64,000 nucleotides of DNA from an uncultured Methanosarcinales archaeon (GTDB taxonomy: Archaea; Nanobdellota; Nanobdellia; Woesearchaeales; JASKKU01). This document shows positions 6,619-29,439 of this stretch, piece by piece. The notes beneath the pieces are model-generated. The model saw only the letters and a list, made by a program, of their open reading frames with translations, had not been told where the DNA came from and made no database searches. The translations under genes and the position numbers were made by a program. The DNA lies in NCBI GenBank assembly GCA_964445165.1, contig CAYUJZ010000001.1, positions 1,591-65,590 on the forward strand, read 5' to 3'. Positions within the stretch are counted from its first letter, which is position 1. Each line of letters starts with the position of its first letter.

Positions 6619-7581
6619 ATGACAGAAAGAGTAGATGTCAAAACAGGGTACTACTGCAATAATTGGTGCAGGTTCTGCGTTCAGGCTCAAAACAGGAAAT
6701 ATGGTAATAGAACTACTCAGGAGATTAAGGATTCTCTTGCTGAAGCAAAGAAAGGAGGGGTAACCGGAGTAGTTTTCACAGGCGGCGAGTTCACAATAAG
6801 AAAAGATGCCCTTACCTTGATTAAATATGCGAAATCCATTGGCTATAATGATGTGATGCTACAGTCAAATGGGAGAATGTTCTCCAACAAGGATTATGTT
6901 AAAAAACTTATCTCTGCAGGTGCAAACCAATTTTCTCCTGCAATTCATGGCTCTTGCGCCGAAATACACGACTACCTTACGCGTGCCCCCGGCGCATGGA
7001 ATCAGGCAGTTAGAGGAATCAGGCTCCTCAGAAGCCTGGACCAAAATGTAATCATTAACTGTGTTGTTGTGAAGGCAAACATGAGAGACCTGCCAAACAT
7101 TGCAAAGCTGCTTGTAAGCCTGGATGTGAACCAGTTTCAGTTTGCATTTGTTCATATAATGGGAAATGCTTTTGAGAATAAGGAATCAATTGTGCCTATC
7201 GCAAGCACCACTTCTCTTTATATGAAAAAAGGGCTCATAATAGGAATAAATGCCAAGAAAAGAGTTATGGTTGAGGCAATGCCTTATTGCCTTATGAAGG
7301 GCTACGAAAGGTATGTCACTGAGCTGTACATTCCAGAGACAATGGTGAGAGAAAAGGACTTTTGGATAAAAGACTTCGAGAAAGTCAGAAGAACAGAAGG
7401 AAAAACGCTTTTCTCTCAGTGCAAAGAATGCAGGTTCAGGCTAATTTGCGAGGGTCCCTGGAGAGAATACCCTGAACTAATGGGAAAGGACGAATTCAAG
7501 CCTGTTCCCGGGGAAGTAATAAAAAACAAAAAAGAAATACTTGATAACTATGAGGATTTTCCTGTTGTTCCAACAGTGTAA
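6619..7581 (+). CDS. short radical SAM enzyme, twitch-like C-terminus (family member 1)
   Basis: CNNWCRFC motif at residues 13-20, TGGEFT, HG...H..LTR...W.QAV.GIRLL, and C-terminal CKECRFRLIC. Confidence 0.8.
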   Translation: MTERVDVKTGYYCNNWCRFCVQAQNRKYGNRTTQEIKDSLAEAKKGGVTGVVFTGGEFTIRKDALTLIKYAKSIGYNDVMLQSNGRMFSNKDYVKKLISAGANQFSPAIHGSCAEIHDYLTRAPGAWNQAVRGIRLLRSLDQNVIINCVVVKANMRDLPNIAKLLVSLDVNQFQFAFVHIMGNAFENKESIVPIASTTSLYMKKGLIIGINAKKRVMVEAMPYCLMKGYERYVTELYIPETMVREKDFWIKDFEKVRRTEGKTLFSQCKECRFRLICEGPWREYPELMGKDEFKPVPGEVIKNKKEILDNYEDFPVVPTV

Positions 7582-7595
7582 CATCAATCTTTAAC

Positions 7596-8729
7596 TTGCT
7601 AGGGGAGGAAAAAATGATACAAAAAAACGAGAATAATTCCCGGAAAGATACATCTCTGGCTATCGACAAAATAGCTCACCTGAGAAATCCCTTTCAACTG
7701 CTTTCAAGAATCGCCTTTTTAATAATAATCGCCTTAATCCTGTACATTGGCTTGAATAGAAGAAGCTTTGTGCTGATAATCATTGGGGGCGTCCTTGTTG
7801 CAACCTTCGCTCTTTTTTTGCTTAATGGCCTCATGACGAAAGTATCCTTAAGTGAACAAAAGATTTGCATCAGGACATTAACAGACAAACTGGAAATAAA
7901 AAAGAAAAACACCAGGAGAATTACAAGACTAATTCCAAAAAAAAAAAATACAAACTATAGGGAATACATTATTGAATATGAAGACGAAGAAGAAAACGAA
8001 GTAATCAAGAAGAGAATATATGGAATTTATGATTATGCAACTTTTGAAGATGCCTTGCGGGAATGGGATATTCCTATAACCAATGTTTCGAAAAGAAAAT
8101 ACAACAAAAAAACAGCTTATTTTTTTGCTGGTGCCTTTGTAATACTCTCTATCATTTTTATGCTTGCGTATTTTGGCGGAAATAATAAAAACCTCGGAGA
8201 GCCTTCTATTCCCGGCGGATTCTTAACTGATTCAGAAGATGCATCAGAGCTAAATCTTCATAAGCTGAGCGTCAGGATGCAGTCTGTAATAGAAGACTTA
8301 AATCAGGGGCATCTTTTCGAAGGGATTGAAAAACCTATTCAAGCAAGAAGAGTATTTCTAAGTTCAGATAAGCTAATGCTTTTTTCAACAGAAGAGCCTT
8401 ATCCCAGACTTGCAATCCTTTACCTATTCTCTGATACTACTCTCAACTTTTCAATCAGGCTTTGCTTTGATGAATTATGCAAGTATTATTCTGAATTTAG
8501 AATGAAGGCTTCAGACTTTAGCCATCCTCCAGCTTTCATTACTTCCGCGGATTCGCCTCTTGTAGACATTGAGCTTAAAACTTCAATAAATGATTTGAGG
8601 GGAACTGCCTTTTTATCTTTTGGGCTGGATAAAATAGAAGGACTGTGGATTGAAAGGGTTGAATTGATCGAAAACGAAGCGAGAAGAGAAGAACACGCAG
8701 CCTTTGATGTTAAGGAGGTAATAAGATGA
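7596..8729 (+). CDS. membrane protein of unknown function (3 TM); its C-terminal domain is paralogous to the next ORF
   Basis: 377 aa. The LMLFSTEE...LNFSIRLCFDELC segment resembles LFLFSSSRKED...VKLCFSESCDE in the 8726 ORF. A 12-nt poly-A tract lies in the coding sequence at 7937-7948. Confidence 0.5.
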   Translation: MLGEEKMIQKNENNSRKDTSLAIDKIAHLRNPFQLLSRIAFLIIIALILYIGLNRRSFVLIIIGGVLVATFALFLLNGLMTKVSLSEQKICIRTLTDKLEIKKKNTRRITRLIPKKKNTNYREYIIEYEDEEENEVIKKRIYGIYDYATFEDALREWDIPITNVSKRKYNKKTAYFFAGAFVILSIIFMLAYFGGNNKNLGEPSIPGGFLTDSEDASELNLHKLSVRMQSVIEDLNQGHLFEGIEKPIQARRVFLSSDKLMLFSTEEPYPRLAILYLFSDTTLNFSIRLCFDELCKYYSEFRMKASDFSHPPAFITSADSPLVDIELKTSINDLRGTAFLSFGLDKIEGLWIERVELIENEARREEHAAFDVKEVIR

Positions 8730-9217
8730 GCGAAGGTAGCCTGGAGCAAAACATCCCTGATATGGAAGAGGTAAGAGAACTCATATTGAGCAGGGCAATA
8801 TTTAAAGAGGTAAAAGAGGTTAGGCCCCTGAGGAAAGTTTACTTTTCAAACGAAAGCCTATTTTTGTTCTCATCTTCAAGAAAAGAAGACAAATTAAGCA
8901 TGATTTACAGAATTGCAAAAAATGAAGAAGCAAGTGTTAAGCTATGCTTTAGCGAAAGCTGTGATGAGAATACTACATTTATAATGAGCAGAGATGGATT
9001 ATCTGACGGGAAAGTCAAGACAAGCATTTCCTACATGAGCCCTCTAAGAGACTTCGTACTTGTGACATCTTCAGATGACGAGTTGAGGGTTTTTCTATTA
9101 AGCTTTGACAAAAAAAGCGTGGATAACAAAATGCTTTTCAAGATAATAGTTGAAGAAATAAAAGAAGATGGTGAAAAAACTAAAAAAGAGTACACTGTTG
9201 GAAAAAAAATAAAATAA
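8726..9217 (+). CDS. soluble hypothetical protein, paralogous to the C-terminal domain of the preceding ORF
   Basis: 163 aa with an ATGA overlap to the upstream ORF. Confidence 0.5.
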   Translation: MSEGSLEQNIPDMEEVRELILSRAIFKEVKEVRPLRKVYFSNESLFLFSSSRKEDKLSMIYRIAKNEEASVKLCFSESCDENTTFIMSRDGLSDGKVKTSISYMSPLRDFVLVTSSDDELRVFLLSFDKKSVDNKMLFKIIVEEIKEDGEKTKKEYTVGKKIK

Positions 9218-9226
9218 TCTCCGAAA

Positions 9227-10897
9227 ATGACTGAAGAGCTAGTTAAAGTAAAGGGAATGGTTGTGCCTAAAAGCTTTAAGGATGAGATTTGTCCCAAGAT
9301 TACAGGAAAGCCTAATGCTGATTTTGTTGTATATAAGGGAGAGTATGCTCTTCTTTACCTGGATGACGACATAAGCTTCGATAGCCTGAAAGAAAAGCTG
9401 AGAAAAGTTGACTTTTCAAAGCTTAGAGAAAAGAAGACATTTATATTTCACAGAGGAGATAAAATATTCAGGACGGAGAAATACTTAACCTACCTGATGA
9501 TCTTCCTGGCAAAGGCAGGAATTGAATTTCAGGCTGTGGGAATTCCTTCGTGTTATTTGCAGGACAGGCTTTCAAGCTCATATGAAATAAAAGCCTTTAT
9601 GAAGGAGAATGAAACAGAGTTCGAAAATTACTTTTATTTTGAAGACTGCAAGGCCTGCAGGCTAAGATGTGCCTGTCCGGGCGCCCTTCAAAAGTACGCT
9701 GACCAGGTTTTTCCGGTTTTCTCTGATAAGAGAAAAGCCTTATCAAGCATAAGCCAGGAAATTAAGGCAAAACCAAAAGTAATCCTGAGCAAAATTGAAG
9801 ATTATGATGCCGCTCTTATTGAAAAACACATCGTTGAATCATTTGAAAAACTTGGCTTGCTGAGGCAAATAGGAAGTGAAACAAAAATTCTTATAAAGCC
9901 AAACTTAGCAGAGCCCTTCTCGCCTGAGAAGGCTGCAACGACTCATCCTGCAATTGTAGAAAGCATTATAATGCTTCTGATTAAGAAATGCAATCCAGAA
10001 AATATTTTTCTCGCGGATGTATCTGCCGGAACAAACTATAAAGAAAGCGAAAAAGCCTACAGCAATACAGGAATGCAGAAAATTGCCGATAATTACGGCA
10101 TCAAAATCATTCAATCGAAAGATATGCAATTCCTTTACAAGCAGTGTACCAACTCCTATTGGCTTGATGGCACAGATTACTTAACAATAATAAATGATGT
10201 CGATTTCATAATAAATGTTCCGAAATTCAAGACACATGGAATCTCGTTTTTTACTGGTGCGGTGAAAAACATTTTTGGGACAATCCATCCTGAAGAAAGA
10301 AAATTCATACACGCAAGGGAAGATAAGGAAGAATTTTGCAAGGGGCTTGTTGACTGCTTCTCCGGCATAGCGCATAAGGTTGCTGTTAACGTAATAGATG
10401 CGATTATTGGCATGGAAGGCGACGAAGGCCCAAGCTACGGAAATCCAAAAAAAATTGGAGCGTTGATAATTTCAAGAGATCCTGTTGCTGCTGATGCAAC
10501 TGCGTGCAGGCTAGTTGGATACAACCCCGAGGCAATGCCCACAATTAAGTTAGGCAAAGAAAAGCTTCTGGGAGAATTTGAAGAAAAAGAAATTGACATC
10601 AGCAAAGACGTCAGTAGCATGCAGGTTAAGGACTTCAAGAAGAACTCGCTTTTTGATTTTATTAACAAGCACAAGAAAGAGAAGGGCTTCGGAAAGACTT
10701 TTCTTTATAATGTAAAAATTACCGAAAAATGCGTTAAATGCGGCTCCTGCTTCCATTCCTGCCCTGTGAAAGCTATCGATATTGATGAAAACGGAAAATA
10801 TTACATCAACCAGCACAACTGCATAAGGTGCTACACCTGCCATGAATGCTGCCCAAACCACGCAATAGAACTAATCAAAATAAAAAACCCTGACTAA
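9227..10897 (+). CDS. DUF362-like domain protein with two C-terminal 4Fe-4S ferredoxin motifs and an N-terminal CKACRLRCACPG cluster
   Basis: C-terminal CVKCGSCFHSCP and CIRCYTCHECCP (2x CxxCxxCxxxCP). The central region (KILIKPNLAEP...THPAIVESII) looks DUF362-like. Confidence 0.55.
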   Translation: MTEELVKVKGMVVPKSFKDEICPKITGKPNADFVVYKGEYALLYLDDDISFDSLKEKLRKVDFSKLREKKTFIFHRGDKIFRTEKYLTYLMIFLAKAGIEFQAVGIPSCYLQDRLSSSYEIKAFMKENETEFENYFYFEDCKACRLRCACPGALQKYADQVFPVFSDKRKALSSISQEIKAKPKVILSKIEDYDAALIEKHIVESFEKLGLLRQIGSETKILIKPNLAEPFSPEKAATTHPAIVESIIMLLIKKCNPENIFLADVSAGTNYKESEKAYSNTGMQKIADNYGIKIIQSKDMQFLYKQCTNSYWLDGTDYLTIINDVDFIINVPKFKTHGISFFTGAVKNIFGTIHPEERKFIHAREDKEEFCKGLVDCFSGIAHKVAVNVIDAIIGMEGDEGPSYGNPKKIGALIISRDPVAADATACRLVGYNPEAMPTIKLGKEKLLGEFEEKEIDISKDVSSMQVKDFKKNSLFDFINKHKKEKGFGKTFLYNVKITEKCVKCGSCFHSCPVKAIDIDENGKYYINQHNCIRCYTCHECCPNHAIELIKIKNPD

Positions 10898-10941: not shown

Positions 10942-12663
10942 ATGAATAAGGAGATGCTTTTAGGGCTCGCTTCAGCAAATGTTCTTCTAATCAGGTTTTT
11001 CTTCACACTGCTTTTTCTTTCTTGCATTATCATTATTAAAAAAAAAAGAATTCCTTCAAAGGTTTTAATTATTGCACTTATTGCCTTCTCAATTGCCTTT
11101 GCTGATGCAATGCTTCTGCCAAAAAGAGACCTTATGTACAACGACGACTTCTACTACCAGTCTATGGCTTTATCTATAAAAGAACGCGGGAATTATTTTC
11201 TTTACCACAGGCAATTTGAAAGCGGCCCTTTTCCAAAGTCAATAGGGTACCCATTCATGCTTAGCCTCATTTACTCAACGGGAAACCTTAACCCAAAGCT
11301 CTCAAATTATGCCAATGCTTTCTTTTATGGGCTTTCTTTTGCACTTTTTGCTGTTCTTTTATGGAAAATAAATAAAACCAATGCGGAGGGAAAAAGAGAT
11401 GAAAAAGAAAAGGATAAACGCAAAAAGAAGGCACTTTTAGGCAAAAGCCTGCTTTTCACCATTTCCTTCATAGCAATGCTTTTGCTCATCTGGTCAAACA
11501 TACTCTTTAAAAAGCTTTCCACAACCGGAGAAACGCATGTTTTTTCCGTTTTTGCAATTGCTCTCTTCATTTATCTTTTTGTTAATTATGTTAAAAGAAG
11601 CTTTTCGGCATGGAGCTTTTTAGCTCTTATGGCTTCTGCCTTTCTGGCAATAGTTACAAGGCCCGAGAATGTAATGATAATATTCATTCTATACCTGGCT
11701 GCTTTTTCTCTTGCTCTGATTAACAGAAAAAAAGCTTTTTGGGTTTTTTTTTCGGCTATCCTGCTAAGCATTTTATGCATTCCTAATTTTCTGGTAATTA
11801 GGTCAGAATATATTGACATTCAATGGGGTGAGGGAAGTAATTTTGGATTGGAAAAAATACCCGAGAATGTTAGGTTTTTCTCAGATACTGTTTTTGGCAA
11901 TCAGTGGGAGTCCGGAATAGTTTTTCTGGCAGGATGCGCATACTCTTTGATTTTTTGCTTCTGGTTCCTTGCTTTTAAACTTTTGCCTTATTCAATTAAT
12001 AAGCTTAGGAAAAAATCATTTATGAAACAAGGCATTAATGCGTTTAATTTATTGTCGTTTTTCGTTATGTCGGTTCTTCTTGCTTTTACTCTTGTTATTT
12101 TTGTATCTCATGTTGACTCAAACAGGGCTCCAAGAATCTATCTCACACCAGTTATGCTTTCTTATGTTGTTTTTGGCTTGCTCGCTTTTTCGATTACAAG
12201 AAACTTTAGCAGCAAAAGGGGAAAAAAACACATCATTTACGGGGTTGCTTTTTTATCAATTGTATTGTTAGCACTTTCAAGCTTTTTCTCAGGTGTGAGG
12301 TGGGAAAAGGAGTTCAGGGAGTCAAGCAACCACAGGAAGGACCAACTTGACATGAGCGAACAGATTTACTTCTTTTTTCAGGGCATGAAAGGGGAGTATT
12401 ATGTAGTCACTCAATACCCTGAAGCTATGTTTTTTCTTGGTAAACGAGCCATAAGTGTTGATGCATTTATAGAGGGATACAACGAACTTAAAGGAAAAGA
12501 AATATATGTCTGGCTTAATAACCTATTTGACAATCCGGGATTTGCAAGAGACAAAACGCTGATGTTTTATAATCATATTAAAGAGGATGCTGAAATGATA
12601 ACGGTTCTCGAATATAAGGCCGGGCCTTATGAATCTAAGCTTGAGAAGCTGGAGTTTAATTGA
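10942..12663 (+). CDS. polytopic membrane protein, GT-C-fold (PMT/ArnT-like) glycosyltransferase candidate
   Basis: 573 aa, more than 12 predicted TM helices, acidic motif YNDDFYY in the first loop after TM1, no soluble domain. Confidence 0.45.
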   Translation: MNKEMLLGLASANVLLIRFFFTLLFLSCIIIIKKKRIPSKVLIIALIAFSIAFADAMLLPKRDLMYNDDFYYQSMALSIKERGNYFLYHRQFESGPFPKSIGYPFMLSLIYSTGNLNPKLSNYANAFFYGLSFALFAVLLWKINKTNAEGKRDEKEKDKRKKKALLGKSLLFTISFIAMLLLIWSNILFKKLSTTGETHVFSVFAIALFIYLFVNYVKRSFSAWSFLALMASAFLAIVTRPENVMIIFILYLAAFSLALINRKKAFWVFFSAILLSILCIPNFLVIRSEYIDIQWGEGSNFGLEKIPENVRFFSDTVFGNQWESGIVFLAGCAYSLIFCFWFLAFKLLPYSINKLRKKSFMKQGINAFNLLSFFVMSVLLAFTLVIFVSHVDSNRAPRIYLTPVMLSYVVFGLLAFSITRNFSSKRGKKHIIYGVAFLSIVLLALSSFFSGVRWEKEFRESSNHRKDQLDMSEQIYFFFQGMKGEYYVVTQYPEAMFFLGKRAISVDAFIEGYNELKGKEIYVWLNNLFDNPGFARDKTLMFYNHIKEDAEMITVLEYKAGPYESKLEKLEFN

Positions 12664-14162
12664 CAAAAATGGAGCTAATAGACACGATAATAAGGATGTC
12701 TTACAGAATCAATTTTGAAAGCTTCTATACTATATCGTCTTTCATTGTATTCCTGATAATTGCCTTGGTTGCACTTATTACATTCAAAGGAATAAGGCAA
12801 AGCCTAAAAGGCGGGATAAAAAAGGGAAAAATACGAAAATGGTCTAAAACTGCTATTGAAGTAATTATTGTTGGAGCAGTTGTGACAACATACTTTCTTA
12901 TAATTATGCAGGGAAAGGTGTTTTTTCCATATGATGAGACTGACATCAAGTATTATCACGGTTTCCAGAACATAATTGACCACTCAAGCTTTATGCTTTT
13001 TGGCACAACTGTCGGGCTGGGGTATTTTGCTGTCCCTATAATACTAATGCAAGCTTTCGGGATAAAAGACATGTTTCAGCTTTTCCCCCTGCTCAAGGCT
13101 CTCATGCTGTCCCTGATTTTGATTTTCTCTTATTTAATTTACTTCTTTTTCAGGAAAACGTCTCGGATTAAAGCCGGCTTTGCCTTAGCTGCCTTCCTTT
13201 CTTTTCCTGCGTTCGTAATGTCTGTCAGAGAGCTAAAAGCAATTTATTTTTTCGTTTTTCTCTCAACTTTGGCTTCTTACATGTTAATGTTGAAATGCAA
13301 GGATAAGAATTGCGGGGCAGAGTACCATTTGCTTTTTTTGCTTAATTATGCGCTTGGATCGCTTACAAGGCCAGAATTTCTTTTTTTTAACTTCCCTATT
13401 CTGATAGACTATGGGATAAGCCAATACAAAAATATAAAGGAGGAAGACTCCTGGCATGCAAAAGAGTGGCTGATTTTAGTTGTTTTTTGCCTGGTCTTAA
13501 TTGTCAGCATATTTCCTTTTTCAAGAACGATACAAAGAGTCACTGAACCTGATGAGGGCGGGAATTTTTTAAGGAATTTAAATTACCTTAAGGATTCTTT
13601 TCACAATCCAAACCTCTTTTTTGGGCCTGTTGCTCTATCATTAGTTTTTATTGTCTCGCTTCTTTTTTTCAAGCAAGCATTTTACTATGGCATAATTTAT
13701 CTGATGGTGCTAATGAGGCTCATGAATTCATTCTACTTTGATTCCCAGCTGTTTGGCTTTTATTTCTCAATTGCGTTAATAATACTCTTCCACAGGCTAA
13801 GGAAAAAAAAGGCTTTTTACTTGGCTGCGGCAATAACTATTATATTCAGTTTGAGCATTGTATTCAGCAATCTGGGCACAATCTTTATGGATGATGGCTC
13901 TGAAATCGTTGAATTTTTTTCTGACTATAAAGACAAAAACATGACCTTTTACACGAGATACCCTGGCGTATTTTTTTCGTACCTATTCAGAGGAACTAAT
14001 ATAACGGTTTTTGGAATGGATGAATGGAAGAATTTAAGCAATAATGAGATTCTTTTAGACCACAACTGCAACCCTATGAATATTGGAGGAACCCTGGTTG
14101 AGTTTGAAAAGGAAAGGTATCTAGGGTCTTTTATGCATTACTGCAAGCCAAAAAATAGCTGA
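12660..14162 (+). CDS. polytopic membrane protein, GT-C-like glycosyltransferase candidate
   Basis: 500 aa, many TM helices, PYDETD motif in the first loop, start overlaps the upstream stop. Confidence 0.45.
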   Translation: MTKMELIDTIIRMSYRINFESFYTISSFIVFLIIALVALITFKGIRQSLKGGIKKGKIRKWSKTAIEVIIVGAVVTTYFLIIMQGKVFFPYDETDIKYYHGFQNIIDHSSFMLFGTTVGLGYFAVPIILMQAFGIKDMFQLFPLLKALMLSLILIFSYLIYFFFRKTSRIKAGFALAAFLSFPAFVMSVRELKAIYFFVFLSTLASYMLMLKCKDKNCGAEYHLLFLLNYALGSLTRPEFLFFNFPILIDYGISQYKNIKEEDSWHAKEWLILVVFCLVLIVSIFPFSRTIQRVTEPDEGGNFLRNLNYLKDSFHNPNLFFGPVALSLVFIVSLLFFKQAFYYGIIYLMVLMRLMNSFYFDSQLFGFYFSIALIILFHRLRKKKAFYLAAAITIIFSLSIVFSNLGTIFMDDGSEIVEFFSDYKDKNMTFYTRYPGVFFSYLFRGTNITVFGMDEWKNLSNNEILLDHNCNPMNIGGTLVEFEKERYLGSFMHYCKPKNS

Positions 14163-14179
14163 AAAAAGAGGAAAAATAC

Positions 14180-21243: not shown

Positions 21244-21534
21244 AAAACAGCAAGTATAAAGGGGTTTTTATTTATTTTGATTTTTCTGAGCTAAAAAAGA
21301 CATTCGGAATTAACCAAAGCAAATGCCTGAAACACAGCTAACATTATTAATCTAACAAAGGCTTGAGCTCGCCATCGCCATAAACTTCTTTATATGTGAT
21401 TGCTATTCCGGGACAGGAATCCTTGTAAATGCAGGGCTTGCATTTCTCGGTTTTTATGTGCATTTTGTCATCTTCTCCTGAGCCATTGATAAAGTAGGGG
21501 TTGTATTTCATCAGCCCAGGGAATATGCAGAAGG
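20829..21534. repeat. copy 1 of a ~706 bp segmental duplication (5' end of the B12-rSAM gene + intergenic spacer + 3' end of the short rSAM gene)
   Basis: Near-identical to 22433-23138 at a constant offset of 1604 bp. The antisense ORFs 20891-21154 and 22495-22758 encode identical peptides. Confidence 0.9.
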
Positions 21535-22228
21535 GAAAAGAGCCCGCACCTTCGGTGAGACCAAAAGGAACATCCTTCTTTGCAAAGAGCCTGAAAGCAC
21601 TTTCGATAAAGCCTGCATGAGAACTCAGCCTAAAAGAAACATGCTTGAATTTGCTGGCAGGTGAGTTTATCCTAGCCAAGGCAAAACAAAACTGGTTGAC
21701 GGAAAGTCCTGGAAAATTTTTTCTTACAAAAAAGGGAATCTTGTAAAAGTGAGCAAGGTTCTGCTTCATTATCACAATTAACATGGTTATAGGAACTTTA
21801 TGCTTCTCAAGGTTTTTCAGCGCGAGAAGCGCCTGCTGGTAGCAGTCTTTTTGGGCTATCATATTGTATGCTTCTTTCTGGTGAGAATTAAATGTAAGGA
21901 AAACGGACTGCAGGCCTAGCCCAACGAGTTTTCTGCAGTATTCCTCATCACTGAATTTAAGGCTGTTTGTCTCAACTGAAAACCTAATGCCTTTATCATG
22001 AGCAAACTCGCAAACTTTGATAAATTCTGGAAGCTGAGTTGGCTCGCCTCCGCCTAAAAAGAATAATTCTCTCAAACCGGGATTCTCTTCAATACCCTTT
22101 TTAATCTCCAGAATAATCTCTTCATAGGTTTTCACATGGCCATTAAACTCCTTTAGGTACTGGTTTCTCTCGCAGTAAATGCAATCTATCTCGCACGCCT
22201 GCTCAAAGTTTATGGATAATCTGCCCAT
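21347..22228 (-). CDS. short radical SAM enzyme, twitch-like C-terminus (family member 2)
   Basis: CEIDCIYC, GGGEPT, C-terminal CKPCIYKDSCPG. Confidence 0.8.
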   Translation of the reverse strand: MGRLSINFEQACEIDCIYCERNQYLKEFNGHVKTYEEIILEIKKGIEENPGLRELFFLGGGEPTQLPEFIKVCEFAHDKGIRFSVETNSLKFSDEEYCRKLVGLGLQSVFLTFNSHQKEAYNMIAQKDCYQQALLALKNLEKHKVPITMLIVIMKQNLAHFYKIPFFVRKNFPGLSVNQFCFALARINSPASKFKHVSFRLSSHAGFIESAFRLFAKKDVPFGLTEGAGSFPFCIFPGLMKYNPYFINGSGEDDKMHIKTEKCKPCIYKDSCPGIAITYKEVYGDGELKPLLD

Positions 22229-22340
22229 GAAATCACTATTGTTAGTCTTGCTTTATTATTTATAAAGCCTTTGGATTAAAAACAGTTTATTAATGGAAAG
22301 ATATAAAACATAAACCTTACTTCACAGAAAGATGCCAAAC

Positions 22341-22847
22341 CTATTGCTCACAAACTACTGCAATCGGTCGTGCCCTTACTGCTTTGCGAAGCAGAAGGTT
22401 GACCTTGAGAAGACAGAGGGGCTTGAGGGCGAGCTCAAGCCTTCGATTTTGAAAAAGGGCTGAAATAGAGCCTGAATCTGCAAAGAGTTCAATTATGCTC
22501 TTTAATGTTAACTCTCCCTCGCCCAAAACCGCAATGTCCGCGATGGTGAGGGATTTTTCTGGCTGTATTGTTGGGCCTGGGCCCCCTATTATTCTTAAAG
22601 CACTGATTTTTGAGAAAAAATGCCTGTTTTTGTTTAGATGGTATTCCATAGAAAAACTATTTGCAGAGAAAGCTACGATCTGGAACTTTTTAGAGAGAAT
22701 CTCTTTGGAGAGTCTGTCAAAGTACCAAAAAGAAAAATCCTGCTCTTTCTTAAGGTAAGAGATTAGTTCAAGCAAGCCAGCGTTCACATGGCCTGTTTTT
22801 AAACCCTGGTTCAGATCAACAAAGGCTATTCTAGGCTTTTGCCGCAT
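22341..22847 (-). pseudogene. truncated duplicate of the N-terminal 138 aa of the B12-rSAM gene at 19876-21243
   Basis: The N-terminal 138 aa (codons inside duplication copy 2) are identical to the 19876-21243 product, then it diverges into 30 unrelated residues and stops. Confidence 0.75.
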
Positions 22848-23138
22848 AAAACAGCAAGTATAAAGGGGTTTTTATTTATTTTGATTTTTCTGAGCTAAAA
22901 AAGACATTCGGAATTAACCAAAGCAAATGCCTGAAACACAGCTAACATTATTAATCTAACAAAGGCTTGAGCTCGCCATCGCCATAAACTTCTTTATATG
23001 TGATTGCTATTCCGGGACAGGAATCCTTGTAAATGCAGGGCTTGCATTTCTCGGTTTTTATGTGCATTTTGTCATCTTCTCCTGAGCCATTGATAAAGTA
23101 AGGGTTGTATTTCATCAGCCTAGGGAATATGCAGAAAA
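22433..23138. repeat. copy 2 of the ~706 bp segmental duplication; also carries a 3' fragment (about 60 codons) of the short rSAM gene
   Basis: A handful of mismatches relative to 20829-21534, e.g. gtagggg/gtaaggg. Confidence 0.9.
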
Positions 23139-23289
23139 GGCTATGCCCGCGAGAATTATCCCGTTGTTAACTAGGCTAAAAGAACTGACACTGCCTCTTT
23201 AATCATCCAGAAAAAAAGCAATCCTCTTTTTAACTTTAGGGAGCATTTCAATCATTAAGTTGTTGAGGATTCTTAAACATTTCCCTTTT

Positions 23290-24855
23290 CTAAATGCCTA
23301 TTATCTTAAATCGGGTGTTAAAAAAGCCTCTTTTTTGGGCTTTTTCAAGCACTTTCTGGTTCTCTTTATACCCTTCCTGGAACAAAGCCAGCTCAACCAC
23401 AAAAGGGTCCAAACAGCCAAACATCTGTCTTGCCGAGGGGTCATAAACAAAACTTAGCCTGAACTTTGGCGAAACAAACGAAAGCAGGTCCAGAAAAAGC
23501 TCATCCAGGTCAATCCCTGGCTTATTGGCAAACTCATCAAAAACCTCCTTAAAGGGGTTAGCCTTAACAAGATGGTCTAAGGTATAAAGAAATCTGGGTG
23601 AGCCCTGAATAATTGAAAGGTTTATTGCCACAAAGGAGCTTTTTAAGCCAGAATTAAAGAACATGTCCTTAACAGCCCTATTAAATGGCCTGTAAAAGTG
23701 CTCTTTCTTATTCGAAAAATCAAAAACAAGCTTAGGATAATCGCGCGTAATGCATGCCCGGGTATCCTTTGAGAATTCGCTCTCATCCGCAAGAAAGAAT
23801 ATCTTTTTATTGTTAAAAAACCTCTTATTTCCCCCGAATTGATTAACCAGCTTAAGCACAGAGGAATAGGTATCTTTGGGGTTAACATTAACAAGAAAGC
23901 CGTCATCCACAAAATTGCTCTTTTCTTTGATTCTCACTGAAGCAGCAAGAGGGTCGCTAAATACCGGGTTTAGCTCTTTTACATCATAAACATTCAGGTA
24001 GCTTTGCTTTACCCCGGGGCATAATGAGGTAAAGAAGCAATTTTCACAAATCTCGGGGTTTTTGACATACTCAAACTCACCGTAAGACTGCTCTCTATCA
24101 AGAAACTTCGTCTCATAATACTCTACTCCAGACGCCCTGAGAGCCTCAGAAGAGTAATACTCGAAATCTTTAAGGTAGCAAAGAGGCACCCTTTCTATCC
24201 TAAGGGTTGTCTCATGTCTCTCAGCTTCCTTTGCGGCATTATACAAGTAAGGCTCTGCAAGGGAATACCTGGGAACAACATTCTTTCTTATGGACTTCAT
24301 AATTTCCGGGTCATTTGAAGCAGGATCAACAAAATTCATTGTCCAGGTGTTTATTTTTGAGTGCTTTGAAGCATCTTTTATAATTTGTGGCAGAACCATA
24401 TAATTCTTTTCAATAATGGTTGTGTTCATGTTAACCTCAAAGCCGTGCTTGTGTGCAAAAGCCATGTTTTGGAATACTGTGGGAAGCTCAATCTCATCAG
24501 CACCGTTTATCTCCATCTCGGCTTCAGCATCGTAATGATGTATAGAAAAGACAAACTTATCAACATACCCTTTAAGCTTAAGAATAAGCTCTTCAGTAAG
24601 CTTTGTGCCATTAGTTATCATTCTTACCTGGGCTTTTGGGGCCTTTGCTCTGAGCATCTGAGCAAGCTCAACAATTTCAGGGTGCATAGCTGGCTCCCCA
24701 CCAGTAAGCACGAACATGTCTGCACCCTTTGAAATAAACTCATCAACCTTCTTCTCAAAAAGCTCTTTTGAGATATAATCTTCTGTCTTTTCTACTGAGC
24801 AGAAAATGCACTTGTGATTACAGTCAAGGGTAACAACAATATAGCCATCCATCAC
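23290..24855 (-). CDS. radical SAM enzyme of the short-family type with a ~200 aa C-terminal extension (family member 3)
   Basis: CNHKCIFC at residues 12-19, TGGEPA, CENCFFTSLCPG near residue 300. Confidence 0.8.
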   Translation of the reverse strand: MMDGYIVVTLDCNHKCIFCSVEKTEDYISKELFEKKVDEFISKGADMFVLTGGEPAMHPEIVELAQMLRAKAPKAQVRMITNGTKLTEELILKLKGYVDKFVFSIHHYDAEAEMEINGADEIELPTVFQNMAFAHKHGFEVNMNTTIIEKNYMVLPQIIKDASKHSKINTWTMNFVDPASNDPEIMKSIRKNVVPRYSLAEPYLYNAAKEAERHETTLRIERVPLCYLKDFEYYSSEALRASGVEYYETKFLDREQSYGEFEYVKNPEICENCFFTSLCPGVKQSYLNVYDVKELNPVFSDPLAASVRIKEKSNFVDDGFLVNVNPKDTYSSVLKLVNQFGGNKRFFNNKKIFFLADESEFSKDTRACITRDYPKLVFDFSNKKEHFYRPFNRAVKDMFFNSGLKSSFVAINLSIIQGSPRFLYTLDHLVKANPFKEVFDEFANKPGIDLDELFLDLLSFVSPKFRLSFVYDPSARQMFGCLDPFVVELALFQEGYKENQKVLEKAQKRGFFNTRFKIIGI

Positions 24856-25715
24856 TCCTCGCCTCCTTCCTTAAGTGGGCTGAGTGCATGGCCCGGCTCA
24901 ATCCTGAACTCCTTAAAATATCTTTCATAAAAACCCGCACATTTTTCATTAAAACAGCACGTGCTGCAGGATTCTGCTTTTATCCTGGGCACAATGCCAA
25001 CAGGATTTTTAACTAACGCCTTGCCAAGCTGGCCTTCAGCCAGAAAGCAGAAGGGAATGTTTCTTAACTCCAGAGCCATTCCTGTCTTGCTGGCACTCTC
25101 AATTATTTCCGTTAAAGCATCCTGCAGTATTAAATGATGCGGCATAAGCATAAAAAAGTTATCTTTTCCCAAGCCTGCAGGCTCAAAAAGCATGATTTTC
25201 CATTTAGATGCCTTAAGCCTCTTAAGCAAAAAAGGCATGCTTTTCAGGTTGGAATCATTGCATTTCGTCAGCACAGTGCTCACTTTGGTATCAAAGCCGG
25301 CAGAGGCAAGGTCTAAAAGCCCCTTCACAGACTGAATCCATGAATCCTCTGTACGAGTAAGGAAGTCGTGGATGTCCCTTCTCGAGGCATGCAGGGAAAC
25401 ATTGAACACAAGCTTTTTCTGAAAAGGCTTAAACTCCTTCAAGAAGGCAGGCACTGCAAGCATCCTACCGTTTGTATTAACCTCTATCATTTCAAAGAGA
25501 GAAAAAGCCTTCTTCACCAAAATCGGCAAGCCTTTGTACAGAGTTGGCTCCCTTGCAGAAATAACTAGCCTTTGCCCCTTTGCCAGGCCCTCAGCATCCA
25601 AGGCCTCCTGAATTTGCTTTATCTCGATTGACGGGTTTTTGCAAAACCAGCAATTATTGTTGCAGGCCTCAGAAACCTGCAATTTCAAGCATTCGGAGTG
25701 CATGGCTAAAGGCAA
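24852..25715 (-). CDS. short radical SAM enzyme, twitch-like C-terminus (family member 4)
   Basis: CNNNCWFC, LHASRRDIHDFLTR, C-terminal CSTCCFNEKC; overlaps the upstream gene. Confidence 0.8.
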   Translation of the reverse strand: MPLAMHSECLKLQVSEACNNNCWFCKNPSIEIKQIQEALDAEGLAKGQRLVISAREPTLYKGLPILVKKAFSLFEMIEVNTNGRMLAVPAFLKEFKPFQKKLVFNVSLHASRRDIHDFLTRTEDSWIQSVKGLLDLASAGFDTKVSTVLTKCNDSNLKSMPFLLKRLKASKWKIMLFEPAGLGKDNFFMLMPHHLILQDALTEIIESASKTGMALELRNIPFCFLAEGQLGKALVKNPVGIVPRIKAESCSTCCFNEKCAGFYERYFKEFRIEPGHALSPLKEGGEE

Positions 25716-25782
25716 AAAACAGGATTTATAAGCTTTTTGTTAGGTTTACCGGGGTTTCTCAAAGAAGGCTGCTTCTTTCCGA

Positions 25783-27372
25783 TTAGCCAGGAATTCTAAG
25801 GATTATGAACTCCGGGCTTTCATTATAAACAAGCTCAAAGGAGATGTTAAGGCTAGCCAGCTCATCTCTAACATCAAAATCCGCCCTCTCTGCAAACACA
25901 ATCAGGGTTTCCCCAGCTTCAGGCCTGTAATCTTCAAAAGAAATAGTATGGTCAAACCGTTTTATACATCTTTCATCAGAATAGAAAGCCATTAGATTAT
26001 CAGAAAGCATATCGGAAAACGGGATATTATAAAGAGTGAATCTTGCTGAACCAATATCAGCCACGCTCTCTAGGTAAGAGCAGTTTGCAGCCTTGCTAAT
26101 AAAATCCAGGCCATGGCTTTTTTGCGTACTTACATGCCCATAAATCGAAGGGTATGCATAAAAGCCGAAAAACAAGCTTGCTCCTGCCAAAAATACCAAA
26201 AGTGAAATGAATGCCATCTTTATCAAGGATTTTCTTTTGATAAGCTCAATCGAGCCTGATTCAAAAAAGCATGCGAGCAGAACAAAAAAGAAGAACAAAA
26301 GATAGGAAAAAAAATATTTCTGATTTACAAAAGTGGATGTTTCAAAAGATGAAAACAGAATAAGGAAAAAGAAGGGAAGCAGTGCCCACCATTTCTTAAA
26401 ATAAAACACATAAAAAGCTGTGAAGACAGAAAAACCAAGAAAGATAAAAAAAGACGGAAAATACGACAGCAAGCTCTCACTGACATTCATAAAGAAATAA
26501 TAAAGAGAGAAGCCGCGATTCACATTAAAGAACAGAACGTGATAGACAAATGGGGCAGCCAAAATAAAGAAAGCAGACAGGGCAACTGCAGAAAAAGCCT
26601 TATTCTTTTTAAGAAATTTATACGAGAAAACAAAAGGAATAAGAAAAAAAATCGCTCCGTGTTCAAACTTGATATATGCCATAGCAAGAAGAATTAGAAG
26701 AAAAAGCGAGACAAGAAAATAGCGTTTAGGCTTAGGCATAAAAAGCTTTCTATTTCCTTCGAGGCTGCAAAAAACAGGCACCAGCGCCACGATCAGGAAA
26801 AGAGAGAAAAATTCCGCAACTGAATATAGCGAACCATACAATGTTATTGGATTAAAGAAAATAAAGCACAATAATGCAAAAGAAGCAAGCCTGCTCAATT
26901 TTGTAGTCTTTAAGAGAAAGTAAAGCAAAATCCCGGCAGAAACAAAAACCAGGGGATTTAACAGGCTGATTTTTCTGGCGAAGCCAGAAAAAAGAGAAAA
27001 AAGGTACAGCACAAAAGAGTAACCCATAGGGTGAGATGGGTGAACAAAAGGGAGCAGAATCATTTTTTCAGAGAAGGGAATCTCAGGGTCCCGCATTATA
27101 TCAACATGATTCAGATATGTCCAAACTTGGGCGTCATGCCCAAAAAACGGCTCGTGCCTGAAAGAGAAAGCAGAATACAAAAAAACAAAGGCAATAATGA
27201 AAGCTACCAAGAAAAATGCGTCTTTCCAGCCAAGCTTAATTCCACTAAGGTGCTTTAAAAAAAAATAAAGCAAAAAACAGAAAAGCAAAGAGAATATAAT
27301 TATTACAAAAGGATACTCGAGCCTGCCCAATGCTGATAAGCCCGGTTCAAGAAAAGACAGGAACATAGGCAC
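25783..27372 (-). CDS. polytopic membrane protein, GT-C-like glycosyltransferase candidate
   Basis: 529 aa, more than 12 TM helices, FFGHDAQ in the first loop. Confidence 0.45.
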   Translation of the reverse strand: MPMFLSFLEPGLSALGRLEYPFVIIIFSLLFCFLLYFFLKHLSGIKLGWKDAFFLVAFIIAFVFLYSAFSFRHEPFFGHDAQVWTYLNHVDIMRDPEIPFSEKMILLPFVHPSHPMGYSFVLYLFSLFSGFARKISLLNPLVFVSAGILLYFLLKTTKLSRLASFALLCFIFFNPITLYGSLYSVAEFFSLFLIVALVPVFCSLEGNRKLFMPKPKRYFLVSLFLLILLAMAYIKFEHGAIFFLIPFVFSYKFLKKNKAFSAVALSAFFILAAPFVYHVLFFNVNRGFSLYYFFMNVSESLLSYFPSFFIFLGFSVFTAFYVFYFKKWWALLPFFFLILFSSFETSTFVNQKYFFSYLLFFFFVLLACFFESGSIELIKRKSLIKMAFISLLVFLAGASLFFGFYAYPSIYGHVSTQKSHGLDFISKAANCSYLESVADIGSARFTLYNIPFSDMLSDNLMAFYSDERCIKRFDHTISFEDYRPEAGETLIVFAERADFDVRDELASLNISFELVYNESPEFIILRIPG

Positions 27373-27413
27373 AAGTAAACCGGTTTTATTATAAATTTTT
27401 CTTTTTAATAAAA

Positions 27414-28409
27414 TTACTTAGATACGCCAGGATTTACCTTTGAGAAAGCTATGTTTTTCTTAACCCTGTTATAAAGGTCTTCTGAAAGTGGGTTAAAGTG
27501 ATAATCTTTATTATTCAGCAAATGCTCTCTCAGAATACCACCGCAAATACCATCTTTTTTCAGAAAGCACTTTTCACATTGCCAAAGATATTCCTGATTC
27601 CTGTAGTCTTTTACAATATCCTTTATTCTTTTGTTAATCTCATCATCTGAAAGGTTGTAAAGGTAGAAAACATTAAAAAATCTTATCGAATTAAACCCAA
27701 GAAGATCTTCTTCAGAGAAAATGCACAGGGGAACATATTCGATTCTTATATCTTCAGCATCTAACCTGCTAATCTTAAGGACGGCCCTTCTGATATCAGA
27801 AAAAGAAACCAAAAAATCCTGAAACCTTATGTTCTTATTATCGTTATGAAGATAAGGCATTGTGAGCCGCCAGGGATATATCCCAAACTCTTTCCTGCAG
27901 AAAACAAACATATCATAAAAGTTCTCGATGTTCTGCTTAAGAAAAACAGAAGTCAGCCTAATTTCAATGCCCGAATCCAGCTCAAGAAGATTCTTAATTC
28001 CCTTGACAACCTGATTAAAGGCGCCCGGATTTCCAACTGCAGCATCGTGGTATTTTGCTTCTGAGCCATAAATAGGTATAAAAACCCTCGAGATGCCGGT
28101 CTTAGCAAACCTGCTGGCAAAACTCTTGTCAGCAAGCCTGTTTCCCGGGTCAAGAAGACTTATATCATCAAAACTTTTAGATAACCAGGAAAGAAATTCT
28201 ATGATTTTAGAGTATTTCAAAGGCTCAGAGCCAGAAACATCAATCCTTTTAAATCCGTTTTTTCTGAAGTAAAGCGCATCTTTGAGAAGCTTCTTCTCTT
28301 CTTCAAGGCCTAGGTCGTCGTTATGTAAACTCTTGTCCGGCTTACAAAACACGCAGTTATTAGAGCAACGCGGATTGATGAGAATGCTCCCAAACTTGTC
28401 TTCTTTCAT
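27414..28409 (-). CDS. short radical SAM enzyme, twitch-like C-terminus (family member 5)
   Basis: CSNNCVFC, SGSEPL, C-terminal CEKCFLKKDGIC. Confidence 0.8.
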   Translation of the reverse strand: MKEDKFGSILINPRCSNNCVFCKPDKSLHNDDLGLEEEKKLLKDALYFRKNGFKRIDVSGSEPLKYSKIIEFLSWLSKSFDDISLLDPGNRLADKSFASRFAKTGISRVFIPIYGSEAKYHDAAVGNPGAFNQVVKGIKNLLELDSGIEIRLTSVFLKQNIENFYDMFVFCRKEFGIYPWRLTMPYLHNDNKNIRFQDFLVSFSDIRRAVLKISRLDAEDIRIEYVPLCIFSEEDLLGFNSIRFFNVFYLYNLSDDEINKRIKDIVKDYRNQEYLWQCEKCFLKKDGICGGILREHLLNNKDYHFNPLSEDLYNRVKKNIAFSKVNPGVSK

Positions 28410-28497
28410 AAAAAAAGAAAAAAGTCTTTTCGTTTAAAAATATTTGCCTTGCCCTTAAATAGGCAATATTTTTAAATCCGGCAACCTCACTATTTAT

Positions 28498-29439
28498 ATG
28501 CAAAAAGAGTACTGCATCCTGAAAATAAACAACAAGTGCAACTACATATGCAACTTTTGTGCCGACTCTCTCAAGATTAAGGCTGAGGAGGAAATAGAAT
28601 TAAATGAAATTCTTTCCATAATTAAAAAAGAAAAAGATGAGGGTGCAATCAAGCTTCTTATAACAGGAGGGGAGCCAACCATATCCCCGCACCTTTTACC
28701 TGCTATTAAGAAAGGAAAAGAGCTTGGCTTTGAGAGCATTAGCCTAACAACAAATGGAAGAAAGCTTTCAGAAGATGATTTTTTCGCAGATGTTAACAGC
28801 TATATTGATGTTTACCTTATATCATTTTTCTCGGCTGACCCTTACACTTTTGACACTATCGCCGGAGTAAAAGGAGCTTTCTCAGATGTGAGTAAGGCTC
28901 TTCTTAAGATTTCAAGAGAGAAAAAAAAGAAACTTTGCATTAATTGTGTCATCTCAAGAATGAATTATAGAGAACTCAACAACATTGTTGTATATCTTGC
29001 ATCACTTGAAGCCTCTTTAATACAGTTCAGCTTTGCTAATATTGTTGGGTTTTTTAGAGATAATTTCGATAATCTTTTTGTTGATTACAATGAAATCTTG
29101 CCCTATGCTGTGAAAGCAATCCGGCTCTCTGAATACCTTAATTATAAAGGGCTTAGTTTTGAGAATTTTCCAATATGCCTTTTTTCAGGACACCTGCCTC
29201 TAAAAAAGGTTATGCCTAGGATATCTGACTTACACCATCCTGCAGGAAACAAAAAATACTATTCAAGCGGCAAGATGCATACACAAAAATGCAGGGAATG
29301 CTTCTTTCTAAACAGGTGCGAGGGCATTTACGAAGAGTACTATAGAAGAAGAGGAGACGGTGTGCTGACATCAATAAAAAAAGAAGATTTTGAAGACGAA
29401 AAAAAAGCAAATAAAAAAGAAAAAGTTAAAAATCATTAA
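28498..29439 (+). CDS. short radical SAM enzyme, twitch-like C-terminus (family member 6)
   Basis: CNYICNFC, TGGEPT, C-terminal CRECFFLNRC. Confidence 0.8.
   Translation: MQKEYCILKINNKCNYICNFCADSLKIKAEEEIELNEILSIIKKEKDEGAIKLLITGGEPTISPHLLPAIKKGKELGFESISLTTNGRKLSEDDFFADVNSYIDVYLISFFSADPYTFDTIAGVKGAFSDVSKALLKISREKKKKLCINCVISRMNYRELNNIVVYLASLEASLIQFSFANIVGFFRDNFDNLFVDYNEILPYAVKAIRLSEYLNYKGLSFENFPICLFSGHLPLKKVMPRISDLHHPAGNKKYYSSGKMHTQKCRECFFLNRCEGIYEEYYRRRGDGVLTSIKKEDFEDEKKANKKEKVKNH

Follow-up and report, generated by a model that had tools for sequence, protein, structure and literature searches.

What kind of enzymes are the six short radical S-adenosylmethionine (SAM) proteins encoded together on one archaeal contig, and what might they make? 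The question arose from a 64-kb stretch of contig CAYUJZ010000001.1 from an uncultured archaeon (positions 1,591 to 65,590 of the forward strand), which we call the window and whose own numbering we use throughout. A preliminary description had proposed that six open reading frames (ORFs), at 6619, 21347, 23290, 24852, 27414 and 28498, form a single family of diverged tandem paralogues of radical SAM (rSAM) enzymes with a twitch-like C-terminus, acting as stepwise tailoring enzymes or as substrate-specialised copies. Our sequence comparisons make it very probable that the six are anciently diverged paralogues belonging to the HxsC branch of radical SAM enzymes. HxsC is the second radical SAM maturase of the His-Xaa-Ser (HXS) system, an anti-phage system of bacteria (Haft and Basu 2011; Li et al. 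2026, PMC13128918).

Sequence alignment of the six enzymes

The ORF listing confirmed all six genes at the proposed coordinates, within one 27-kb locus:

6619..7581, + strand: HxsC-like rSAM, 'ICEGPW' subtype, 320 aa (PF04055 1.9e-22; HxsC4 135 bits; HxsC 91.6 bits)
21347..22228, − strand: HxsC-like rSAM, 293 aa (HxsC4 70.5 bits, top match; HxsC 59.5 bits)
23290..24855, − strand: long HxsC-like rSAM, 521 aa (520 from the ATG at 24852), with rSAM core, Cys module and ~220-aa tail (HxsC 51.6 bits)
24852..25715, − strand: HxsC-like rSAM, 287 aa, AREP for GGEP, overlapping 23290 by 4 nt (HxsC 107.8 bits)
27414..28409, − strand: HxsC-like rSAM, 331 aa (HxsC 89.3 bits, top match)
28498..29439, + strand: HxsC-like rSAM, 313 aa, divergent from 27414 (HxsC 90.8 bits, top match, covering 29-290 of 292)

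PF04055 (Radical_SAM) matched every one of the six (Pfam, E 2e-11 to 2e-22). All-against-all BLASTP aligned them over nearly their full length at 19-27% pairwise identity; the database consisted of the window's ten rSAM proteins, and the E-values of 8e-27 to 2e-3 refer to these 10 sequences. The other four rSAMs of the window (HxsB at 5154, and those at 15268, 18434 and 19876) aligned with the six at the core only or not at all. The six-way alignment contained twelve invariant columns, namely the start Met and, in 6619 numbering, C13, C17, C20, E57, N154, P222, C224, C268, C271, C277 and G279. Seven of these are Cys, three in the CxxxCxxC motif and four near the C-terminus. Thus, the similarity extends beyond the rSAM core, and the cysteines that the preliminary description had linked to an auxiliary cluster are present in six of six proteins. 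The same four C-terminal columns held Cys in 191-202 of 204 HxsC-like proteins from ~90 loci.

Several of the proposed motifs needed adjustment. CxxxCxxC, placed within the first 25 residues, does start at residues 12-18 in all six. GGEP was found literally in 21347, 23290 and 28498, but reads GGEF in 6619, AREP in 24852 and GSEP in 27414, so that only its Glu is invariant. The H..(L/F)T(R/G)...(W/F).Q.V.G block was clear in 6619, 24852 and 27414 but degenerate in 21347, 23290 and 28498. The C-terminal string, described as CxxCx4-6C, is C-x2-C-x5-C-x-G in five proteins but C-x2-C-x7-C-x-G in 27414, and a fourth invariant C-terminal Cys had been overlooked; it sits in a P-x-C motif 27-49 residues upstream of CxxC. 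In 6619 these elements are CNNWCRFC (residues 13-20), P222-x-C224 and C268-x2-C271-x5-C277-x-G; in 21347, C12-x3-C-x2-C, P232-x-C234 and C263-x2-C-x5-C-x-G; and in 27414, C15-x3-C-x2-C, P227-x-C229 and C278-x2-C-x7-C-x-G. The C-terminal elements are P224-x-C226 and C270-x2-C-x5-C-x-G in 23290, and P225-x-C227 and C265-x2-C-x5-C-x-G in 28498.

Relationship to HxsC

Among NCBIfam models, the top match was HxsC (TIGR03977) for 24852, 27414 and 28498, and HxsC4 (NF038332) for 6619 and 21347. For 23290 the top match was MoaA, and HxsC/HxsC4 ranked sixth. The highest HxsC score was that of 24852, covering model positions 28-290 of 292, and a tblastn search with this protein against plasmids found annotated hxsC genes (24.8% identity, 95% of the query, E 1e-17). 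The annotated HxsC proteins of Klebsiella and Agrobacterium have the same CxxxCxxC, P-x-C and C-x2-C-x5-C-x-G layout as the six. In Klebsiella HxsC numbering, C105/C108 and C342/C345 are the residues that were mutated in the E. coli HXS study, and C342/C345 lie within the C-terminal module; the C342A/C345A protein showed lowered HxsA processing and abolished phage defence (PMC13128918). A neighbour-joining tree, rough and calculated without support values, placed all HxsC-like sequences together and apart from HxsB/SPASM proteins, with MoaA as the outgroup. The six grouped with canonical HxsC in this tree and share its layout, as expected if they form the single paralogous family that had been proposed.

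Within the HxsC-like group, the six window proteins scattered over six subclades; we therefore regard them as old paralogues rather than the outcome of a recent local expansion. Recent tandem duplication was rejected as their origin, given the six subclades and the 19-27% identity; only a 704-bp repeat (see below) is recent. The term 'diverged tandem paralogues' was thus apt as to divergence but not as to arrangement: one gene is 14 kb from the other five, both strands are used, and other genes are interposed.

Two observations weigh against the assignment to HxsC. All six scored 41-135 bits on HxsC/HxsC4, far under both cut-offs (267.9 bits for TIGR03977 and 500 bits for NF038332), and the ~90-aa N-terminal extension of canonical HxsC is missing from all of them, CxxxCxxC beginning at residue 101 in Klebsiella HxsC versus residues 12-18 here. 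Because the six score under the HMM (hidden Markov model) cut-off and are without the N-terminal extension and an in-locus HxsA, and because five of the genes also lack HxsB as a neighbour, we call the six HxsC-like and not HxsC.

A further explanation would be that the six are generic rSAMs of unrelated subfamilies (MoaA-like, viperin-like or SPASM maturases) that share the core only. Many NCBIfam rSAM families did match each protein (E 1e-10 to 1e-24), MoaA being first for 23290, and PADLOC pVip models matched at up to 78 bits. The matches to other families were, however, confined to the core, and none reached its cut-off: viperin_w_prok scored at most 69.1 bits (28498) versus 180 (NF038283), and MoaA TIGR02666 at most 65.5 bits versus 284. 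Neither PF06463 (Mob_synth_C) nor, at E <= 0.01, PF13186 (SPASM) matched any of the six in Pfam. The mutual alignment through the C-terminus with its seven invariant Cys, and the position in the tree with HxsC and away from MoaA and SPASM proteins, contradict this explanation, and we give it hardly any credence. A viperin/pVip reading was rejected on the same grounds, since the PADLOC matches cover the core only and the NCBIfam scores fall under cut-off, and so was a MoaA reading of 23290, which is without Mob_synth_C and has the HxsC-type Cys module.

The C-terminal cysteine module

In the AlphaFold2 (AF2) model of 6619 (pLDDT 97), the final strand of the barrel is followed in turn by P-x-C224, a short beta pair (241-250), a helix (253-261) and C268-x2-C271-x5-C277. 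Twitch and SPASM domains show the order Cys, beta pair, helix, CxxC, and the C-x2-C-x5-C string is said, by Grell, Goldman and Drennan in 2015, to belong to the SPASM motif. The longest alignments for 6619 were with the SPASM enzymes anSME (264 residues) and SuiB (255 residues). The earlier label 'twitch-like' is therefore plausible from the order of elements in the model, but the searches gave neither a SPASM Pfam match nor a sequence match to a solved twitch or SPASM domain. A PDB profile search gave no sequence match for the C-terminal region of the six among solved proteins, and no solved HxsC structure.

Apart from those of the SAM site, the six have just four conserved Cys, whereas the SPASM pattern (CX9-15GX4C...CX2CX5CX3C...C) has seven and SPASM enzymes hold two auxiliary clusters. 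Because four such Cys suffice for one cluster, we expect one auxiliary cluster per enzyme. Most likely, the four invariant Cys (P-x-C plus C-x2-C-x5/7-C) hold a single auxiliary [4Fe-4S] cluster in a truncated SPASM-type domain.

The gene cassette around 6619

Gene loci that we retrieved for comparison carry L-numbers (the 89 loci scanned as a set are L001-L089), and representative proteins carry P-numbers. In the window, 6619 closes a genuine Hxs-type cassette, in which it is preceded by these genes:

2464..3642, + strand: A24 (prepilin-peptidase)-like polytopic membrane protein (PF06819 22.7 bits, cut-off 23.4)
3735-4331, + strand: HxsD-like (TIGR03976 33 bits, cut-off 50)
4306-4824, + strand: HxsD-like (TIGR03976 33 bits, cut-off 50)
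4821-5126, + strand: HxsD-like (TIGR03976 20.8 bits, cut-off 50)
5154..6581, + strand: HxsB, SPASM-type rSAM maturase (TIGR03978 426.1 bits, above the cut-off of 370)

The HxsB protein gave Pfam matches to Radical_SAM and Fer4_12 and a weak one to SPASM. Its gene ends 38 nt upstream of 6619, which takes the HxsC position immediately after HxsB; the other five paralogues have no HxsB neighbour. The same order of genes (A24-like, three HxsD-like, HxsB, 6619 type) was repeated in L002 and L019. The A24-like protein contains the motifs D-x3-G-K-I-K-N and W-x2-G-D-A-K-L-F; its homologues, found in 26 related loci, conserve both Asp motifs, and those in L044 and L086 match PF01478 weakly. The product of 4821-5126 had HxsD_rel (NF038315) as its top match, at 31.5 bits versus a cut-off of 41.

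The first two HxsD-like proteins (3735-4331 and 4306-4824) have acidic tails ending in ...(I/V)PWxE.., which read DDPSGISVPWEVKHGE and EELEIPWSEEEK in the window. The tail motif DPLGIAxPWEEKYG is kept across DPANN, Planctomycetia, Omnitrophota and the Candidate Phyla Radiation (CPR), in loci that include L014, L019, L020, L031, L037, L044, L046, L048, L073 and L086. The motif may serve in docking or may itself be modified.

The gene downstream of 6619 at 7596-8729 and its neighbour at 8726-9217 share a domain of ~125 aa (29% identity, E 1e-9), and the 7596 protein has N-terminal transmembrane segments. The two occupy the place that hxsA takes after hxsC in bacteria, but they are without His-Xaa-Ser repeats. 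Just upstream of the cassette, 947-2044 (− strand) encodes a Cys-rich protein of 365 aa that matched nothing in Pfam or NCBIfam. Its N-terminal region includes a hydrophobic segment, and it may be secreted or sit on the cell surface.

One further gene on this side of the locus bears on the six enzymes:

9227..10897, + strand: DUF362 + 2x[4Fe-4S] ferredoxin protein (PF04015 2.8e-47, and Fer4 families)

The C-terminal Cys module of HxsC recurs on its own at the N-terminus of this protein (aa ~84-182, nt ~9476-9772; IPSC...CKACRLRCACPG; hhalign probability 92.5%, E 5e-7). In L094 (364-2361) a DUF362-ferredoxin is fused to a whole HxsC-like rSAM. Because of the module and of this fusion, we consider the DUF362-ferredoxin a candidate redox partner, and its sequence suggests a partner dedicated to HxsC-like enzymes.

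Related loci

More than 100 orthologues of 6619 were found, at 46-85% identity, recognisable by CNNxCxFC and ICEGPWxEY; their hosts are DPANN, Elusimicrobia, Omnitrophota, CPR, Myxococcota, Planctomycetia and Bdellovibrio. A profile of the other five paralogues recovered only ~25 proteins above 120 bits among 5.8 billion. Of these five distal types, the 23290 type alone has recognisable counterparts in other arrays (21 loci), and no clear orthologue of 21347 was found in other loci. The pair 24852 + 23290, with an upstream membrane protein, is kept as a unit in L004-L006, L098 and L099. Orthologues of 28498 are P0124 (67%), P0125 (46%) and P0127 (44%).

HxsC-like genes were commonly present in arrays. 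Thirty-seven loci had at least 15 kb of sequence around a 6619 orthologue, and 29 of them carried two or more HxsC-like genes; 17 carried four or more, with a maximum of nine. Fusions were common as well. An exhaustive HMM search returned 1,917 cluster representatives at E <= 1e-30, and among the best 150 of these, 146 were new (P0241-P0386). Most are polypeptides of 580-1400 aa made of 2-4 complete HxsC-like units, counted by their paired motifs, each with CxxxCxxC and CxxCx5C. Because both gene arrays and domain fusions are common, it seems that several HxsC-like units act in one pathway. The earlier idea of stepwise tailoring or substrate-specialised copies thus draws support from comparison (arrays of 2-9 genes, fusions of 2-4 units), but no substrate was found in the window.

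The partners that recur across the 89 loci are the A24-like protein (26 loci), HxsD-like proteins (23) and B12-rSAMs (16); HxsB-like genes recur too. Genes for HxsA-type (SHG)n peptides were present in at least 24 of the 89 loci, and 15 of the 37 large loci have an HxsA-like peptide. These peptides are 79-291 aa long, with a KKxIKxFLxSEEGK N-terminus, a hydrophobic segment, an HSNYF motif and a run of 5 to >40 Ser-His-Gly repeats ending in GQW, GSY or GGWC. Examples are L007 3092-3439, L020 4425-4688, L031 6344-6718, L044 4323-4604, L086 8717-8998 and L048 5922-6797. Against the NCBIfam HxsA4 model, the (SHG)n peptides of related loci scored 49.2 bits (cut-off 55). As NCBIfam holds models named HxsA4, HxsC4 and HxsD_rel, its curators have evidently met a rare Hxs variant. 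In L091 (Agrobacterium pAt, CP048549.1) a canonical hxsB-hxsC-hxsA set at 7103-8801 lies ~2 kb from an annotated prepilin peptidase gene, reminiscent of the A24-like partner in the expanded systems.

In another group of loci, of Elusimicrobia type (L096, L097, L022, L024, L025, L053, L064, L081 and L083), HxsC-like genes adjoin Oxidored_nitro and NifH-like genes. Other Elusimicrobia loci of the same set contain HxsA-like, HxsB, HxsD-like and A24-like genes. The nitrogenase-like loci look like the clusters of group VI nitrogenase-like (NFL) genes plus many rSAM genes described by Meheust et al. (2020), and one may ask whether group VI NFL proteins work in a pathway of Hxs type.

These loci also bring in the possibility that the paralogues build a cofactor, either a peptide-derived or small-molecule cofactor, as PqqE and MftC do, or a metallocofactor, with a link to group VI NFL proteins. 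HxsC-like genes flank the Oxidored_nitro/NifH-like genes in L096, L097 and seven Elusimicrobia loci, and up to 13 rSAM genes have been reported beside group VI paralogues, with a new cofactor proposed (Meheust et al. 2020, 10.1101/765248). The DPLGIAxPWEEKYG tail, which HxsD-like proteins of several phyla have in common, would suit a cofactor precursor, and the window has a DUF362-ferredoxin that may be dedicated to these enzymes. However, the ORFs of the window scanned at 1-30.4 kb gave no match to a nitrogenase-family Pfam model. In bacterial loci the tail motif is found together with separate HxsA peptides, and for that reason the HxsD-like tail need not be a precursor. DPANN genomes, moreover, have little redox metabolism in which a new cofactor could be used. 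We judge a cofactor improbable as the product of this locus.

The distal paralogues and their neighbours

Between 9227 and the end of the paralogue set, the window contains the following further genes:

10942-12663, + strand: large membrane protein
12660-14162, + strand: large membrane protein
14180-15271, + strand: DegT sugar aminotransferase (294.9 bits)
15268-16614, + strand: rSAM homologous to the two B12-rSAMs, with no Pfam B12 match
16633-18408, − strand: large membrane protein (weak PMT_2 match, E 0.0017)
18434-19879, − strand: B12-rSAM (Pfam B12-binding domain)
19876-21243, − strand: B12-rSAM (Pfam B12-binding domain)
22951..23136, − strand: remnant, the last 61 aa of a 21347-like gene including CxxCx5C, differing by one residue
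25783..27372, − strand: large polytopic membrane protein, 529 aa, between 24852 and 27414

The genes from 10942 to 21243 lie between 6619 and the distal five as context genes. At a place matching that of 25783..27372, a membrane protein of 465-530 aa adjoins the 24852/23290 pair in close relatives. A Pfam search of the four large membrane proteins at E <= 1 produced a single sub-threshold match, to PMT_2, and a PDB profile search gave nothing; a homologue search brought back, besides the query, only a Woesearchaeota orthologue that has no domains. 'GT-C-like' is thus a weak label for these sequences.

This neighbourhood allows a different account of the locus as two unrelated modules, in which only 6619 belongs to an Hxs cassette and the five distal enzymes (21347-29439) tailor sugars or glycans in an envelope glycosylation cluster. 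They would epimerise, dehydrate, decarboxylate or oxidise nucleotide- or lipid-linked sugars by radical chemistry, and the DegT aminotransferase, the B12-rSAMs as methylases and the GT-C-like membrane proteins as transferases would be their partners. Beyond the DegT gene itself, comparison gives this account several points of contact. L004-L006 combine the 24852 + 23290 pair with PMT_2, DegT, two GT2 and a B12-rSAM, with no HxsB or HxsD, and the module of a close relative, L100, has two GT2, DegT and a DAO oxidoreductase. The 28498-type orthologue P0127 adjoins an NAD-dependent sugar epimerase/dehydratase, a Clostridium perfringens plasmid homologue adjoins a sugar-phosphate nucleotidyltransferase, and in a complete Aenigmatarchaeota genome the 6619 orthologue itself stands beside GT1, a carbamoyltransferase and a B12-rSAM, with no HxsB. 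In sequence, no solved protein comes nearer than BlsE, a sugar-nucleotide decarboxylase (98 bits, over the core only), and precursor-sized ORFs are absent among the five.

Other observations speak against this account. The family signature is that of HxsC, a protein-modifying enzyme. The similarity to BlsE ends with the rSAM core at position 179, and TIGR04466 scored 69 versus a cut-off of 400. For the four large membrane proteins, the label GT-C goes back to the one sub-threshold match mentioned above. PMT_2-type membrane proteins, which recur in the DPANN and CPR versions, are also found with HxsA, as in locus L080; because of this co-occurrence, a single pathway may combine glycan and peptide chemistry. 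Taking both sides together, we consider two unrelated modules the main alternative, possible but less likely than a single expanded locus.

The distal genes have some features of their own. The preliminary description had noted an extra tail of ~200 aa in 23290, and we find ~220 aa after the Cys motif, kept in orthologues of 520-524 aa that are 43-75% identical over their full length, tail included. The tail alone gave no Pfam or PDB match, and an AF2 model built from a five-sequence alignment (pLDDT 46) was unusable for identifying it. A DUF362-like tail was not supported: when the 9227 protein was compared with the 23290 family by hhalign, only the Cys module plus ~40 residues aligned, at a probability of 63%.

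A direct repeat of 704 bp with 99.4% identity occupies 20829-21532 and 22433-23136. Its second copy contains the 21347-like remnant and creates a truncated B12-rSAM ORF at 22341-22847; over its first ~137 aa the product of this ORF is the same as that of 19876-21243. The repeat is a recent segmental duplication that left pseudogene fragments, or possibly an assembly artefact.

Beyond the last paralogue, archaeal ribosomal-protein genes (L15, L30, S5, L18, L19e, L32e and L6; 29462-33875, − strand) abut it. Several of these proteins have long Lys/Glu/Ala-rich low-complexity extensions, such as the ~180-aa N-terminal one in S5 (402 aa) and the ~90-aa C-terminal one in L32e. Together with the nearest relatives, this operon points to a DPANN archaeon of Woesearchaeota type as the host. 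The window also has tRNA genes for Pro-GGG (42638-42710, + strand) and Arg-CCT (43578-43653, − strand), and no further RNA family reached its Rfam gathering score in the window.

Proposed pathway

Putting the cassette and the distal genes together, we propose that the region from 2.4 to 29.4 kb is one expanded archaeal Hxs-type maturation locus, in which the paralogues tailor one exported, ribosomally made product that is not encoded in the window. We put the chance of this at about even, or a little below. The locus would comprise the A24-like peptidase, the three HxsD-like proteins as chaperones, HxsB, 6619 in the HxsC position, the five other, more specialised HxsC-like enzymes, the three further rSAMs and the large membrane proteins. 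Each enzyme would cleave SAM reductively at its CxxxCxxC [4Fe-4S] cluster, and the resulting 5'-deoxyadenosyl radical would take a hydrogen from the substrate. The auxiliary cluster would then pass the electron needed to complete an oxidation or a cross-link, with the neighbouring DUF362-ferredoxin protein as the likely electron partner. The paralogues may install different or successive modifications on the same exported product, which is possibly glycosylated and which the A24-like peptidase would process. We infer that the copies are specialised. As for the type of product, peptide and glycan are both in play for this locus, and a single exported product is most likely.

A number of results weigh against this proposal. 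No (HxS)n string was found in the six reading frames of the window (regular expressions and a His-rich scan), and no ORF of the window matched an HMM of 16 HxsA-like peptides with E below 1.9. The five distal genes are 14 kb away from the cassette, and in the ORF listing there is no room for small precursor genes between them. The closest syntenic relatives (L004-L006, L098 and L100) carry DegT, GT2 and PMT_2, with neither HxsB nor HxsD within reach. An HxsB-like gene is present in only 17 of the 37 large loci. Finally, the auxiliary cluster on which the proposed chemistry draws is one whose binding we infer from sequence and the AF2 model.

Wider significance

The family-wide pattern is more interesting than this window. 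The window may be an example of a widespread multi-enzyme pathway in which 2-9 HxsC-like units, as separate genes or as fusions, build a new radical-SAM-made exported polymer or cofactor; we hold this view tentatively and regard it as less likely than not. If true, such a pathway would span DPANN, CPR, Elusimicrobia, Omnitrophota, Planctomycetia and Myxococcota. Its recurrent partners would be HxsB, tailed HxsD-like proteins, the A24-like intramembrane peptidase and B12-rSAMs, often with GT-C transferases or nitrogenase-like reductases. The product would be a heavily modified surface or defence polymer, or a cofactor, made by chemistry without precedent so far from (SHG)n peptides in many loci and from another substrate in loci without HxsA.

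Whatever the product, the HxsC fold has been multiplied many times in Elusimicrobia, Omnitrophota and the small-genome symbionts of DPANN and CPR, at the cost of a large share of the genome. Members of the family can now be picked out by a simple signature, CxxxCxxC at the N-terminus together with P-x-C...C-x2-C-x5-C-x-G, its recurrent partner proteins are named, a candidate dedicated ferredoxin included, and the rSAM arrays beside group VI nitrogenase-like genes are tied to the Hxs family. It is testable whether the many units act at repeated sites of a single peptide, share out different modifications among themselves, or have been recruited to glycan chemistry. Because the substrate gene is absent from it, the window is not the best locus for such experiments.

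Comparison with known systems

The literature that we searched describes only the four-gene bacterial HXS defence system, with brief mentions of HxsB/HxsC besides; it holds no account of multi-HxsC arrays, fusions, an A24-like partner or archaeal versions. In E. coli HXS, maturation of HxsA requires HxsB, HxsC and HxsD, and HxsC binds HxsD (PMC13128918). This sole functional study observed a change of +8 Da, and the reaction was not reconstituted. HxsC of the HXS system resembles the six in the rSAM core and in P-x-C...C-x2-C-x5-C-x-G, and 6619 follows HxsB and HxsD-like genes as hxsC does. Unlike bacterial HXS, the window has six HxsC-like copies versus one, five of them away from HxsB, in an archaeal host and with no HxsA found in the window; its partners are an A24-like peptidase, B12-rSAMs, DegT and large membrane proteins.

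The rare Hxs models of NCBIfam, HxsC4 (NF038332), HxsA4 (NF038313) and HxsD_rel (NF038315), resemble proteins seen here: HxsC4 is the top match of 6619 and 21347, HxsD_rel that of 4821-5126, and HxsA4 is like the (SHG)n peptides of related loci. All scores are below cut-off (41-165 bits versus 500 for HxsC4). These models describe single proteins, whereas the window and its relatives present arrays of 2-9 paralogues and fusions.

Among solved structures the closest is BlsE, a cytosylglucuronate decarboxylase (PDB 7vob), in a sequence-profile search (98 bits, E 4e-27) as well as in a Foldseek comparison. BlsE acts on a sugar nucleoside, which is consistent with the DegT and glycosyltransferase context of the window, but the match stops within the core, and nothing in BlsE aligns with the C-terminal Cys module of the six. 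With the twitch enzymes (SkfB, BtrN, MoaA) and the SPASM enzymes (anSME, SuiB), the six share a modelled Cys-rich C-terminal extension after a partial TIM barrel. Their ligand pattern, an upstream Cys plus C-x2-C-x5-C, is unlike those of BtrN (C...C...CxxC) and MoaA (C-x2-C-x13-C).

Lastly, the groundwater Elusimicrobia studied by Meheust et al. (2020) have rSAM genes beside group VI nitrogenase-like paralogues; that study did not place these rSAMs in a family. The 6619 profile retrieved Elusimicrobia loci in which some of the rSAM genes next to Oxidored_nitro and NifH-like genes are HxsC-like.

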